Counted from the first letter of the whole stretch, positions 13,084 to 62,705 are shown. The stretch: 63,148 nt of DNA, filler included, from Octopus bimaculoides (GCF_001194135.2; 7 parts of 6 records of this genome joined end to end with filler, not necessarily neighbours in it), one strand, 5' to 3'. Translations and numbers: made by a program. Notes: generated from the letters alone by a model not told the origin.

Positions 13084-13398
13084 TATAATTTATTAACTAC
13101 AAAAATTCAATATGTTCTCTTACAGCTGTTTCGATTGTGACCAAAGAATTAAATTCCAATAATTAAAATATTTGGGTGAGGGTGGCAAAATACTACTGCA
13201 GTTTCTCATTTAGATCCACACACAGACTGTTGAAATGTTTTGGAAGAATGACATCTAATAACCTAACGGTATGTCTTTGTTACTTCTCTGACTAGAATTT
13301 ACCCCAAAAAATGTTTAAATTATTAGAATTTAATTCTTTGGGCAAAATCGAAGCACCAGTAAGGGAACATATTGAATTTTTGCAGTTAATAAATTATA
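13084..13398. mobile_element. Foldback element with decayed outward-facing hammerhead motifs
   Basis: About 100-bp arms (13084-13180 vs 13300-13398) are imperfect reverse complements; left arm has GAAACAGCTGTA on the minus strand (13121-13132). Confidence 0.7.
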
Positions 13399-14479
13399 AT
13401 AATGCGAAATCTCCTTTTTCTGAATTTTAATTTGAATATTTATAAATCAAGATTTATAGTTAAACCTATTATTTTTATGAACATTACTATTCACAAAAAA
13501 AAATAATAGGTAACAAACCTGTAATTCATTGGATATTTTTTTATCCCTTAATGAGGCTATTTAACCTGTATTTAAATTTATATATATATATATGTATATA
13601 TATTTACACACACACACACACACACACACACACACANNNNNNNNNNNNNNNNNNNNNNNNNNNNNNNNNNNNNNNNNNNNNNNNNNNNNNNNNNNNNNNN
13701 NNNNNNNNNNNNNNNNNNNNNNNNNNNNNNNNNNNNNNNNNNNNNNNNNNNNNNNNNNNNNNNNNNNNNNNNNNNNNNNNNNNNNNNNNNNNNNNNNNNN
13801 NNNNNNNNNNNNNNNNNNNNNNNNNNNNNNNNNNNNNNNNNNNNNNNNNNNNNNNNNNNNNNNNNNNNNNNNNNNNNNNNNNNNNNNNNNNNNNNNNNNN
13901 NNNNNNNNNNNNNNNNNNNNNNNNNNNNNNNNNNNNNNNNNNNNNNNNNNNNNNNNNNNNNNNNNNNNNNNNNNNNNNNNNNNNNNNNNNNNNNNNNNNN
14001 NNNNNNNNNNNNNNNNNNNNNNNNNNNNNNNNNNNNNNNNNNNNNNNNNNNNNNNNNNNNNNNNNNNNNNNNNNNNNNNNNNNNNNNNNNNNNNNNNNNN
14101 NNNNNNNNNNNNNNNNNNNNNNNNNNNNNNNNNNNNNNNNNNNNNNNNNNNNNNNNNNNNNNNNNNNNNNNNNNNNNNNNNNNNNNNNNNNNNNNNNNNN
14201 NNNNNNNNNNNNNNNNNNNNNNNNNNNNNNNNNNNNNNNNNNNNNNNNNNNNNNTATATATATATATATACATATATGCATCCATATATACATACATATA
14301 TACTTATGCGTGTGCATGTTTTATATACATATTCTTAACAAAAATATTTGAGCGCATCAAGAATTCTGAAATACCAGTGTCTTCATTATATTCCAATTCG
14401 TCAGAATTTTTACAACGCATTATTCACAAACCAATAATGATTACAGCAACATAGTCGCCTTAAGGATGTTCGTCGCGAG

Positions 14480-14850
14480 AAAGAGCTCGTTGATGACGAT
14501 GAGAAGGAGGAGGGGGAGGTGATTATGGTGGTGGTAGGGGTAGTGGTGACATTGGTTGTAGTTATGCTTGTGATATTGTTTGTGATGAAGATGAGAAAGA
14601 GAAGAACGAAGAGGAAAAGGAAGGGGGCGATCTGGAAGAGACCATTGCGGTAGTGGGAGGGATGACGGTGTTGCTGATATTGGTTGTGGTTCGCGTTGTG
14701 ATGCTGTTTGTGTTGTTGTTGATGATGATGATGATGATGATGATGATGGTGATGATGATGGTGATGGTAATGGTGATGATGATGATGATGATGTCGTGGT
14801 GGTAGTGGTGAGGTGGGTCGGTGGTTGTGATGGGGATGATGATGACGAGA
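14480..14850. repeat. Compound (GAT)n/(GGT)n/(GTT)n low-complexity tract
   Basis: Direct reading; explains the poly-His ORFs at 14410-14919. Confidence 0.9.
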
Positions 14851-16352
14851 TGACACAAATAAACAGCAGAATGGCAAAAGTACTGCTCGTTTTGACATTT
14901 TCATTTTATAATCATTCAAAATAAAACGTATTAAAATAAAATTTATTTAGCCATAACAAACAACTCATTATTTTGTAATCCAACCGCTGCCGTTGAAGTT
15001 GAAGTAAGCTGTGCACGTGCATTAATCAACAACCCGTTGTTAACAAACAGAAGACCCCGAAGCAGTAAACACCAAAAAAATGTGAGAAAATATTCGTAAA
15101 CGCTGCATAAATTAAGAAGAAAAATTGTTTGAAGATTAAAGAGAATATTTCGAATTCGTCTGAAAGTATGTAAGAAATGGTTCTATTTCCACTTAATTAA
15201 TATCTCGTGTACACTTGGGGATCTAGACAGGAAAGAAACGGAGGCAGTATAGAATGAGAAACATTGAGGTAAATACTATATAGGTCAATGGATGTTTGAC
15301 ATTCATTTTATACGAAATACTATCTTACCTATTTTTTTCTAAATCTTCATATAATTATATCTGTTTCGCCAAGAGAGTTGTTTTGGCGGAAAATTTATCT
15401 GTTGTGGTGTTTAGGAAACAAATTCTCTAAGCAAGTATTTCTGTCTGACTTGGATAAGAGCATTTAAAATGTGATCAACTATCATTAAATTTTAACCCCT
15501 ATTCTGCAGAAGGAAACATTTACGCATTAATTGGGGAAAAAAATTTATATCCATAATTATACATACAAAAAGAATATTCTTGAGGCAATTTCTACTCTAT
15601 ATATATAGTTCAAACGATTAGTTAAATAGCGGGTTGCTCATCGATGTTGGATAAGTATAAGATATTTGTATATAAAACAGAAACAGGCTCTATTACGCTT
15701 AGTTCTTTATGAAAGCCGGCTAAAGACAGGTGTTCATAGAATGAGCGGCATTCTGTCCATCTCTGTAAATGAAGTGCTTTTAATACATACATGTTAAAAT
15801 ATACGTACATTCGTTCCAGATGTTTACATCTGTCGTGTATTTTCATGCACAATTATATCGTTATTCTGAATGTCTAATGATTTTGTCACTTCTCTCATGA
15901 GATATTTTATACGCCACTAGTATGTGTTTTAAGTAATAAAACTATAAAAAGAGACAGCATCGCAAGGTGAAATCAAAATTTGAAAATCCTACAAGACTAG
16001 GTGAAAAGCGCTTTATATGATTTACAAAGCATGTGACATATTAATAAAAAATTGTAAATGTACAACCATCCAGATTTCTGAGTAACTTAAATATCTTTCT
16101 AATATATATATATATATATATATATATATAGTAAGAGTAAGGATATGCATATCCAAGCAGAAAACGTGTTATTCTATGTAAAGCACCAAGTCGGGTTTCT
16201 TCCGATGGTCTGTTTAAGGTATATTCCTAAAAACTACCATCCGATGTTGCAGTTTATTTTCTGGCTGTTTAGGGTGTATAATCATAAAACTAATAATAAA
16301 GAAAACGAAGAATTTGAATATTCAGTCTTTCTGCTTGGTTTATTCATAATAA

Positions 16353-16447
16353 TTGTCCGACACGTGTTGCGATCGTATCAATTGCAAATTGCTGCATATT
16401 TATAGGCAGGGATTTATGCATAATTTGTACGATCTCTTCAGGGAGAA
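16353..16447 (-). ncRNA. Type I hammerhead motif, one core mutation (A13C)
   Basis: UUCUCC-CUGAAGA-GAUCGUA...UACGAUC-GCAA-CACGUG-UC-GGACAA: 7-bp helix II, palindromic helix III ACACGUGU, GUC triplet, helix I 5/6 paired. Confidence 0.7.
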
Positions 16448-60636: not shown

Positions 60637-61523
60637 CGGTGGTGGTGGTGGTGGTGGTGGTGGTGGTGGTGATGGTGACAATGACTATTTTTTACTTGAT
60701 TTAATGTTATTACTTGTGCTGTACTTTCCCAGGTTTATAATCTTAAGAATATTATTTCTCTTGCTCGCATTTTCCCATGTAATCCATGATCTTTCCAGAT
60801 TATGCCATTATGCTAATTAATAATGTGTCAATTAATAATTTAAGATTTTACCTTATTGAAAATTGTCTAATATTTAAGCTGACGTAATTAAACTAATTGC
60901 AAATTACCGGGGTCTTTGATAATTTTTTCGTTACCTCAATGATGCCGGTAACATATATTAAAAGTCCCTTTATAGAACTATATTCACAAAAAAGTATAGA
61001 ATAATATTATCACCCTCAAATTTGAGAAACAAACACTCATAACTTTTTTCTTTTCAAACTTCATTGCATGAGATCAATACCATGAAATTCCTCGAATTGA
61101 GCTCTATCATTTAAGTGAGTAAATTGGGTCCTTAAGAATATTATTACACTACTAGCGTTGTTGAATGATGCGTTTATACATACTTACATATACACATACA
61201 TATATATATACACACACAAATGCACATACACACATACACATATACATGCATACATATCCATATATACATATCCATATATACATATACATATATANNNNNN
61301 NNNNNNNNNNNNNNNNNNNNNNNNNNNNNNNNNNNNNNNNNNNNNNNNNNNNNNNNNNNNNNNNNNNNNNNNNNNNNNNNNNNNNNNNNNNNNNTTGTCT
61401 CTCACACTCTCTCTCAATGTTCTATAGTCAAAAACATAAAAAACACTAAATGAACATCTCTAAAAGAAGTAAAAGTCAGACGAATACGGTGTTAATCGAA
61501 CGCTTGAGATGGGTCCAGAGTGA

Positions 61524-61557
61524 CCTGACGTTTCGGACGTTAGTCCTTCTTCAGAAA
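61524..61557 (-). ncRNA. Minimal type I hammerhead, intact core
   Basis: UUU-CUGAAGA-A-GGAC(UAAC)GUCC-GAAA-C-GU-C-AGG; palindrome ACGU, GUC triplet. Confidence 0.75.
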
Positions 61558-61883
61558 GAAGAGGAAAAAAGAGGGGTAGAGAGAGAACGAAAGAGAACGA
61601 GTGAAAGTGATAAAATAGTTATAATGATAACTTAATTAAAGAACAGGACGCATGAGAAAAAGAAAATTCTAAAAGGCAAGTGTTAGCTAATATAGGTGAG
61701 GAGTAATGCCGGTGCGTGTGTGTATGTGGGTGTTTGTGTGTATGCGCATGTGTGTAATTTCTAGCTGAGTCGTAAGAAAGCGCGCGCGCGCGTATTTGTG
61801 TGAGGCTGTGTTCGTGCAAGTCTGCTTGTGTGTGTAACATGTGCCAAAGATGTGTTGTAGGATTGTCTGGAGAAGTTCAAAGA

Positions 61884-62705
61884 AGGCGCCAGCGTGGCTA
61901 TGCGATAAGAAGTTTGCCACCCAACCACATGGTTCCATGTTCAGTCACGCTGCGTGGCACCTTGGGCAAGTGTCTTCTACTATAGCCACGGGCCGACCAG
62001 AGCCTTGTGAGTGGATTTGGTAGACAGAAGCTGAAAAAAGCCCATCATATATATATAGTTGAAATTTATGGGAAAACAAAAGACGAAGACGGGTGTATGA
62101 ACAACAAGCAGGTGTATTAGTTTGACGCTCGGGAGAGTGAGGAAGTCTTTTACATTTCGAGCCTACGCTCTTCAACAGAAAAGGATAAGCGAAAATAAAT
62201 AGAGATGAAAAAAAACTTGTGCATTTAGTGGTTAAGCATGGCGACTGGCATACACACACACACGCACACACACGCACACACACACACACTTATATATATA
62301 TATATACATATGTATATATATATATATATATATATATATATATATATATATATATATATATATATATATATATATATATATATATATATATATATATATA
62401 CATATATATACATATATATACATATATATATGCATATATATATATACTTATATATATATACATATATATACACGTGTGTGTGCATGTGCGTGCGTTTATG
62501 ATCTTGTGTGTGTGCTTGAGCCCACCACCGCTCGACAACCGGTGTTGGTGTGCTTACGTACCCGTAACTTACCTATTCGGTAAGTAGAATAGGTACCAGT
62601 CTTAAAAAATAGCCCTGGGGTCAATTCGTTCGACTAAAATCTCTTCAAAGTGGTGCTCCAGCATGGCCGCAGTCTAATGACTGGAATAAGTAAAAGATCG
62701 AAGAC
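61884..62705 (+). mobile_element. SINE family A split by a PLE-like insertion and expanded (TA)n
   Basis: Head 61884-62050, foreign 62051-62250, microsatellite to about 62510, tail 62520-62705. Confidence 0.8.
62146..62182 (-). ncRNA. Hammerhead-like motif with U at position 6
   Basis: UUUU-CUGUUGA-A-GAGC(GUAG)GCUC-GAAA-U-GU-A-AAAG. Confidence 0.55.

Follow-up and report, generated by a model that had tools for sequence, protein, structure and literature searches.

The window analysed here, a 63,148-nucleotide stretch of Octopus bimaculoides DNA (GCF_001194135.2) made up of seven parts of six records joined with filler, carries a set of type I hammerhead ribozyme motifs in which helix III is a short palindrome. 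These motifs are likely the surviving 3' ends of pseudo-long terminal repeats (pseudo-LTRs) from Penelope-like elements (PLEs) of no fewer than seven to ten families, mostly old, truncated and likely no longer cutting, and we put the probability of this reading at about 85%. The type I order of parts (core boxes, helix II, GAAA, palindrome, UH, helix I) occurs above chance, and the layout of the inverted insertions, judged from sequence, matches PLE structures described in the accessible parts of published reports (PMC3846280, PMC8557442). The window is AT-rich animal DNA with 53,037 called bases and 10,111 N, and contains many microsatellites, short interspersed elements (SINEs) and transposase remnants.

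The initial annotation, made from the sequence alone, listed nine motifs, all of which were confirmed in place and strand, with position 3 of the core at 16441 (-), 20508 (+), 29912 (-), 30449 (+), 36468 (-), 38023 (-), 45992 (+), 61554 (-) and 62178 (-). They form seven families by blastn, in agreement with the estimate of about seven unrelated families, and, since the motifs at 29.9 and 30.4 kb are the two arms of a single insertion, the nine motifs represent eight events. Their description as parseable holds insofar as all are present, but most are damaged and one of the nine (61554-) passes the published minimal-hammerhead descriptor, which allows stems of 3–7 bp and loops of 3–10 nt and yields a match in 3 of 500 shuffles.

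Chance expectation was estimated from 300 local dinucleotide shuffles in which microsatellites were kept fixed. GAAA followed by a palindrome of at least 6 nt and UH was found 12 times, versus 4.9 times in shuffled sequence, a count reached in 5 of 300 shuffles; with an exact first core box no more than 100 nt upstream the figures were 4 versus 0.10, and for any palindrome with an exact first core box 7 versus 1.0, neither count being reached in any of the 300 shuffles. All six fixed tests showed an excess, four of them reached by 0/300 shuffles and the other two by 1/300 and 5/300, so the claim that palindromes joined to a core are hard to explain by chance is borne out. A scored scan, whose score was devised after the motifs had been viewed and with the published consensus as a guide, places the nine motifs at ranks 1–7, 10 and 11, and returns 12 matches at 10 bits or more (0.87 in shuffles), 8 at 12 bits or more (0.25) and 7 at 15 bits or more (0.04). 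The match at rank 12 (27444-, 10.7 bits) sits inside a mariner-like coding sequence; it was therefore rejected as a chance match, and it marks the noise level of the scan. A long-type pattern searched in metagenomes gave 47 loci, none with both helix I and helix II of at least 3 bp, and these were likewise set down to chance; chance matches to the core and palindrome thus come without the helices.

Three decayed motifs proposed alongside the nine did not stand by themselves. The weak U3-A8 motif at 23708–23752 (+), with a 6-nt palindrome and 9.0 bits, and that at 58.8 kb (8.3 bits) are inside the noise, with 1.5 matches per shuffle expected for the former and 1.5–2 over this range, while the motif at 13.1 kb has an unrecognisable first box and falls outside the top 30 scan matches listed.

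The palindromes read as originally given, those at 38.0 and 62.2 kb being each broken by one letter, and the reported range of helix II, from 1 bp to more than 10 bp, corresponds to 1 bp at 38.0 and 46.0 kb and 11 bp at 20.5 kb. The computed self-duplex energies of the intact palindromes, from -1.7 (4 nt) to -14.1 kcal/mol, indicate only that pairing is possible. Departures from the consensus core or helices comprise A13C at 16.4 kb, G5C at 36.4 kb, A15.1G at 38.0 kb, U6 at 62.2 kb and a broken helix I at 20.5 kb; at 29.9 and 30.4 kb, A stands opposite G where helix II begins (10.1/11.1). The U3-A8 core seen at 46.0 and at 26.6/26.8 kb is a published covariant (PMC4209133), so the 46.0 kb core is sound at position 8. 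As to traits of the PLE type, an extra base follows A9 at 36.4, 61.5 and 62.2 kb, and G10.1-C11.1 is present at 16.4, 38.0, 46.0, 61.5 and 62.2 kb and not at 20.5, 29.9 and 30.4 kb; both traits occur together with a palindromic helix III at 61.5 kb and in the 62.2 kb family.

Three motifs illustrate the range of forms. The type I hammerhead at 16352–16448 (-) (C3 16441, H17 16359, 22.9 bits) has a 64-nt helix II region with a 7-bp base, an 8-nt palindrome and the A13C change, and a short inverted repeat (16448–16487 / 16612–16647) lies upstream of it. The short minimal hammerhead at 36426–36475 (-) (position 3 at 36468, H17 36433, 20.0 bits) combines an ACGU palindrome, G5C and a bulged A with a helix II of about 6 bp. 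The descriptor-passing hammerhead at 61520–61561 (-) (C3 61554, H17 61527, 19.5 bits) has an ACGU palindrome, a bulged A, a 4-bp helix II with G10.1-C11.1, and a 3-bp helix I including two G.U pairs.

Comparison of the window with itself (blastn) revealed five close-set inverted matches with arms longer than 100 nt, at 13.0–13.4, 26.5–27.0, 29.8–30.6, 53.6–53.8 and 58.5–58.9 kb. All five palindromes bear an outward-facing motif or motif half, four of them on both arms, the fifth (53.6 kb) having lost one arm to a gap. The arms are 73–85% identical, and different core letters have been lost from each. The clearest case is the single head-to-head insertion at 29792–30632 (arms 85% identical), whose two hammerheads, at 29801–29919 (-) (C3 29912, H17 29808, 21.4 bits) and 30442–30557 (+) (C3 30449, H17 30550, 17.7 bits), have intact cores, helix II regions of 83–86 nt and a ACAGCUGU palindrome. 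The two arms agree on the first box, as do those of the remnant at 26463–27014 (73% identical), which was absent from the initial annotation and has U3-A8 first boxes at 26637 (-) and 26835 (+) and the 8-nt palindrome CAUCGAUG in both arms. Here the two arms differ in where helix II, the GAAA box and UH are mismatched, so that each supplies what the other has lost, and the arms combined give a 5-bp helix II, GAAA, UH and helix I; the right arm scores 7.8 bits, with a shorter helix III.

The remaining palindromes are more decayed. The remnant at 13033–13447 (84% identical arms) bears on each arm an outward hammerhead 3' half, with G12 at 13132 (-) and an intact ACAGCUGU palindrome on one and a decayed half at 13350 (+) on the other. 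At 53580–53990 (+), a palindrome (53580–53845, arms 85%, the left one stopping at a gap) is followed by a motif at 53861–53980, likewise absent from the initial annotation, with intact core boxes, an 87-nt linker, an 8-nt palindrome and decayed helices; its 8.8 bits are within noise when taken by itself. The remnant at 58503–58915 (arms 78%) has decayed outward motifs on both arms, with C3 at 58753 (+), the left arm being the more decayed.

Other remnants show an inverted tail. At 20133–20917 (+), the 3' tail (20817–20917) is repeated inverted at 20133–20249 (86%), and the hammerhead at 20501–20590 (+) (C3 20508, H17 20583, 29.9 bits) has an intact core, a helix II of 11 bp and a palindrome of 8 nt, and its helix I is interrupted at the second pair. 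The remnant at 37837–38053 (-), between simple repeats, holds a hammerhead (37992–38030, 11.9 bits) with U3-G8, a 7-bp helix I, a 1-bp helix II, A15.1G and a 6-nt palindrome; its kin at 45833–46073 (+) consists of an inverted 3' tail (45833–45958) and then a sense copy cut by a gap, with a hammerhead at 45985–46023 (+) (U3-A8, 7-bp helix I, 1-bp helix II, ACCGGU, 15.6 bits). The remnants adjoin microsatellites. All same-family pairs in the window lie on opposite strands, so that one transcript would offer no same-family dimer and read-through RNA would form a long hairpin. The motifs at 61.5 and 62.2 kb share a strand and are separated by 620 nt; their palindromes are compatible, and a cross-family dimer between them is conceivable.

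A possible history of these copies can be outlined from published PLE biology. RNA across the tandem pseudo-LTRs of the parent element would carry two hammerheads, with helix III too short for self-closure; pairing of two copies by way of the palindrome would lead to cleavage behind the UH triplet, a reaction probably slow or aided by an element protein, as published for other PLEs. By a published mechanism, target-primed reverse transcription would begin at a GIY-YIG nick in AT-rich or microsatellite DNA, usually end early and leave the hammerhead-bearing 3' end alone, often with an inverted head-to-head copy, which is the layout observed here. The copies would subsequently decay, the paired arms diverging and losing different core letters, as observed. 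The palindrome that differs from family to family would then be each family's own self-pairing helix.

The 62.2 kb motif could be followed beyond the window. The fragment at 62058–62245 (-) belongs to a very high-copy family and sits in a (TA)n tract splitting a SINE; its hammerhead (62144–62185) has a bulged A, a 4-bp helix II with G10.1-C11.1, and U instead of A at position 6 (62175). The window is represented in 13 sequencing runs of one organism, by half of its words or more, and weakly in two others; among the runs with small shares X14 alone was used. No RNA run was listed for 61400–62220, which carries no weight as to expression. Contig sets from two organisms (A, set X1, and B, set X14) and two RNA runs were compared with 61400–62245 at 80% likeness. 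Summed depth over the core was 2.15 and 3.59 million, versus 53 at single-copy sites (X1); such a sum is not a copy number, and the family probably has thousands of copies or more. The majority letter at 62154 restores the ACGU palindrome (82% of depth in both organisms, and 994/1419 and 978/1439 RNA reads), and that at 62182 restores the fourth pair of helix I (86% and 89%), giving a 4-bp Watson–Crick helix. At position 6 no difference was seen among the best 40 of 63 rows, and the two A>T sites tallied in X1 and in X14 lie elsewhere, which puts A6 at less than 25% of the records aligned there. Aligned depth is 2.2 million at 62154 and falls to 0.27 million at 62182, and A6 could therefore be present in a larger sister subfamily whose alignment breaks off on reaching position 6 or earlier; it can safely be said that a high-copy U6 subfamily exists in two species. 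The inspection of family consensus sequences suggested by the initial annotation thus restores the palindrome and helix I of this family but, among the records aligned at position 6, not A6. An alternative register starting three bases later (U3-G8 with A6) was rejected: it lacks helix I and leaves helix II with 1 bp, and the U6 register is preferred because it has 4 bp in both helices.

The simpler reading of U6 is a founder change, since cleavage was unneeded for in vitro insertion by an Anolis PLE (PMC11167929). It is possible, but to our mind doubtful, that this abundant family fixed U at the near-invariant A6, keeps its helices and dimer palindrome and still cuts, perhaps with a preference for Mn2+ or dependence on a protein; together with the long-stem class, with helix II arms of 57–87 nt and palindromes of 8–10 nt, it would then escape descriptors, implying a many-fold undercount and a more plastic PLE core. 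No report of an A6U hammerhead was found in the literature searched, but variants at position 6 or with long stems may be covered by Lunse et al. (2017); the family motif had no matches in the metagenome, genome and viral contigs searched.

RNA reads over 61400–62245 run equally in both directions, 91–92% of them continue into dissimilar sequence and 80% show less than 90% likeness, so they derive from other copies; depth at 61516–61573 is about 3 or less. This pattern fits read-through of dispersed copies and has little bearing on cleavage. Depth for the 61.5 kb family is about 20 times that of single-copy sites. In organism B (X14), two contigs connect the 62.2 kb family's tail (62134) with the region of the 61.5 kb motif (61526), a hint of kinship or co-occurrence between the two families; blastn gives no link between them.

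Several results weigh against a PLE origin or against functional hammerheads. No RT (reverse transcriptase) or GIY-YIG remnant was detected with Pfam among 342 stop-free pieces of at least 45 amino acids, and we therefore infer PLE membership from the layout; coding remnants are expected to be missing because the copies are 5'-truncated. The long motifs, with 57–87 nt between boxes, exceed the published descriptor, and the motifs at 53.9, 58.8, 23.7 and 13.1/13.3 kb are insignificant singly. Folding of 12 motifs as monomers was unremarkable (z from -2.2 to +0.6), and no hammerhead family appeared among the 150 of 166 Rfam covariance model matches (E ≤ 10) that were listed. Majority letters were read at high depth for one of the seven families, and that one keeps the non-canonical U6. 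At neither of the predicted cut sites do RNA read ends pile up, although fragmented cDNA makes this a weak test; an active PLE hammerhead gave the same absence of read-end pile-up (PMC11167929). The initial proposal of PLE-type ribozymes accordingly stands as to type I minimal form, palindromic helix III and non-chance occurrence, but a link to RT/GIY-YIG open reading frames was not found in the window.

An improbable alternative derives the motifs from non-autonomous non-LTR retrozymes, as dispersed monomers of short non-coding units that form circular RNA and depend on a PLE enzyme for their movement. There is no open reading frame remnant beside any motif, the 38.0 and 46.0 kb copies share a start about 30 nt before the core that suggests a defined unit of about 215 nt (n=2), and retrozyme families, in the accessible part of a recent preprint (bioRxiv 10.64898/2026.07.22.740005), include many solo monomers and have a proposed pseudo-LTR descent. 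However, head-to-tail arrays of a motif-bearing unit were not found in the self-comparison of the window, head-to-head inversion is a PLE signature, and the short motifs match the minimal PLE consensus and not the canonical 6-bp/4-bp form.

It is highly improbable that the palindromic remnants are hairpin DNA transposons, similar to foldback elements or miniature inverted-repeat transposable elements (MITEs), with incidental hammerhead-like words. Such elements would account for five near-complete palindromes of 270–840 nt without coding capacity, three of which are in the noise or outside the top 30 by descriptor alone. However, the five palindromes, whose sole blastn link is a 42-nt AT-rich match between 29.9 and 53.9 kb, all orient a core box or the GAAA-palindrome-UH part outward, the arms at 26.5–27.0 kb together complete every helix, and the 29.9/30.4 kb pair scores 21 and 18 bits.

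Equally slight is the prospect that the host has domesticated some motifs as ribozymes for processing an intron or a non-coding RNA of its own. Both RNA runs have reads over the 62.2 kb family and one motif (61554-) is intact, but core substitutions occur in most copies, the reads come mostly from other copies, as described above, with almost no depth around the intact motif itself, and the copy at 62.2 kb was inserted recently within a SINE. Chance combined with pattern-seeking in AT-rich repetitive DNA has a negligible probability for the entire set and is refuted for it by the shuffle counts; it still applies to single motifs below about 12 bits, since a false match may score as high as 10.7 bits (27444-) and the SINE head yields five GAAA-CG-UU words without a first box.

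The density of these motifs was described initially as unusual. The strict descriptor gives 1 match in 53,037 called bases, or 18.9 per Mb (95% CI 0.5–105). Counts in other animal genomes correspond to about 1–6 per Mb, inside this interval. The counts themselves, in the accessible part of the source, are about 2,000 in Schistosoma, 4,000 in the coelacanth and 9,000 in Xenopus (PMC4209133), and, as they are strict and the initial annotation included degenerate copies, an excess of density is not demonstrated. Motif-bearing remnants occupy about 9% of called bases (with hand-set ends), near the 6.83% and 190 families already annotated as PLEs in Octopus vulgaris (PMC13282606, supplement), and under-annotation of these repeats is likewise not demonstrated. 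Taken as octopus DNA, the window is ordinary for its genome.

Several other features were noted. Two hammerhead-like candidates lie at 15973–16021 (+) (U3-A8 box, 8-nt palindrome, 13.7 bits) and 39372–39453 (+) (U3-G8 box, 7-bp helix I, 11.9 bits). The abundant SINE head holds GAAA-CG-UU with no upstream first box at 16862, 17142, 18182, 45456 and 53194 (all -), a source of false half-motifs for genome-wide searches. Broken Tc1/mariner remnants at 31490–31903 (+) and 36830–37640 (+) account for the two above-cutoff Pfam matches among the 342 pieces, both to Tc1/mariner transposases. The segment at 27240–27860 (-), recognised by eye from its translation, we take to be another such transposase remnant, and a 54-amino-acid open piece at 53314–53475 (+), without a Pfam or homologue match, presumably resembles part of a non-LTR retrotransposon protein. 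A 105-bp MITE-like element at 36672–36776 has perfect 25-bp terminal inverted repeats and no hammerhead motif. Six gaps (27101–27200, 33342–33441, 37730–37829, 47841–47940, 53476–53575 and 59090–59189) share the layout 44 N/12 letters/44 N; the 12-mer is an identical AT-only linker in the three gaps read, an assembly spacer of non-genomic origin.

For the assignment of short non-coding hairpin repeats to PLEs, the combination of a hammerhead motif and a head-to-head palindrome offers a usable signature, and the U6 family bears on the purpose of PLE hammerheads. Should the U6 form be dead, the family reached high copy number without cutting, and the motif would be a passenger or serve as a structural signal; should it cut, the core tolerates a change of which no report was found in the literature searched.

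The only other natural position-6 variant found in that literature is the A6C hammerhead of phage Bcep176, likewise substituted at A6 in an otherwise complete hammerhead and, according to the accessible parts of the reports, slow in Mg2+ and faster in Mn2+ (PMC3088659, PMC7151607). That variant belongs to a single phage, while A6U here is found in a high-copy animal repeat known from its sequence. The non-LTR retrozymes of the preprint cited above, so far as its accessible text describes them, have in common with the present motifs non-coding type I repeats, pseudo-LTR kinship and frequent solo copies; they are defined by head-to-tail tandem units, of which the self-comparison of this window gave none.

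One octopus Naiad element is labelled 'HHR_half_core' in the accessible material of PMC8557442. Comparison of the long motifs with the Naiad consensus file as ends of this 'half-core' type gave no support, and the idea was set aside: eight family-specific short words were absent from the accessible Naiad/Chlamys/Hydra consensus file, where line breaks could mask a match, and two generic words matched unrelated places only. Pseudo-LTR insertions of endonuclease-bearing (EN+) PLEs, in the accessible parts of PMC3846280 and PMC8557442, share with the window 5' truncation, an adjacent inverted copy and junction palindromes, with the difference that non-coding ends alone survive here; a microsatellite bias is also a known PLE trait (PMC8557442, accessible part).

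The closest known counterparts are the minimal hammerheads of metazoan PLEs (PMC4209133). No survey of cephalopod hammerheads was found by title or abstract in the literature searched, and the list of PMC4209133 is without cephalopods. All 56 representatives on that list have A6, in contrast to the U6 of the 62.2 kb family, and the motifs with 57–87 nt between boxes and 8–10 nt palindromes lie beyond its descriptor. An Acropora Neptune example has the 4-bp helix II and UAAC loop of the 61554- motif, and the accessible part of the report gives as common features type I order, a short helix I, an extra base after A9, G10.1-C11.1, palindromic helix III, the U3-A8 variant and many families per genome. 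It also describes the motifs as dispersed, mostly single and highly heterogeneous, with opposite-strand pairs 100–700 bp apart, so that the main pattern, thousands of dispersed, heterogeneous PLE hammerheads in each of many animal genomes, is already published.

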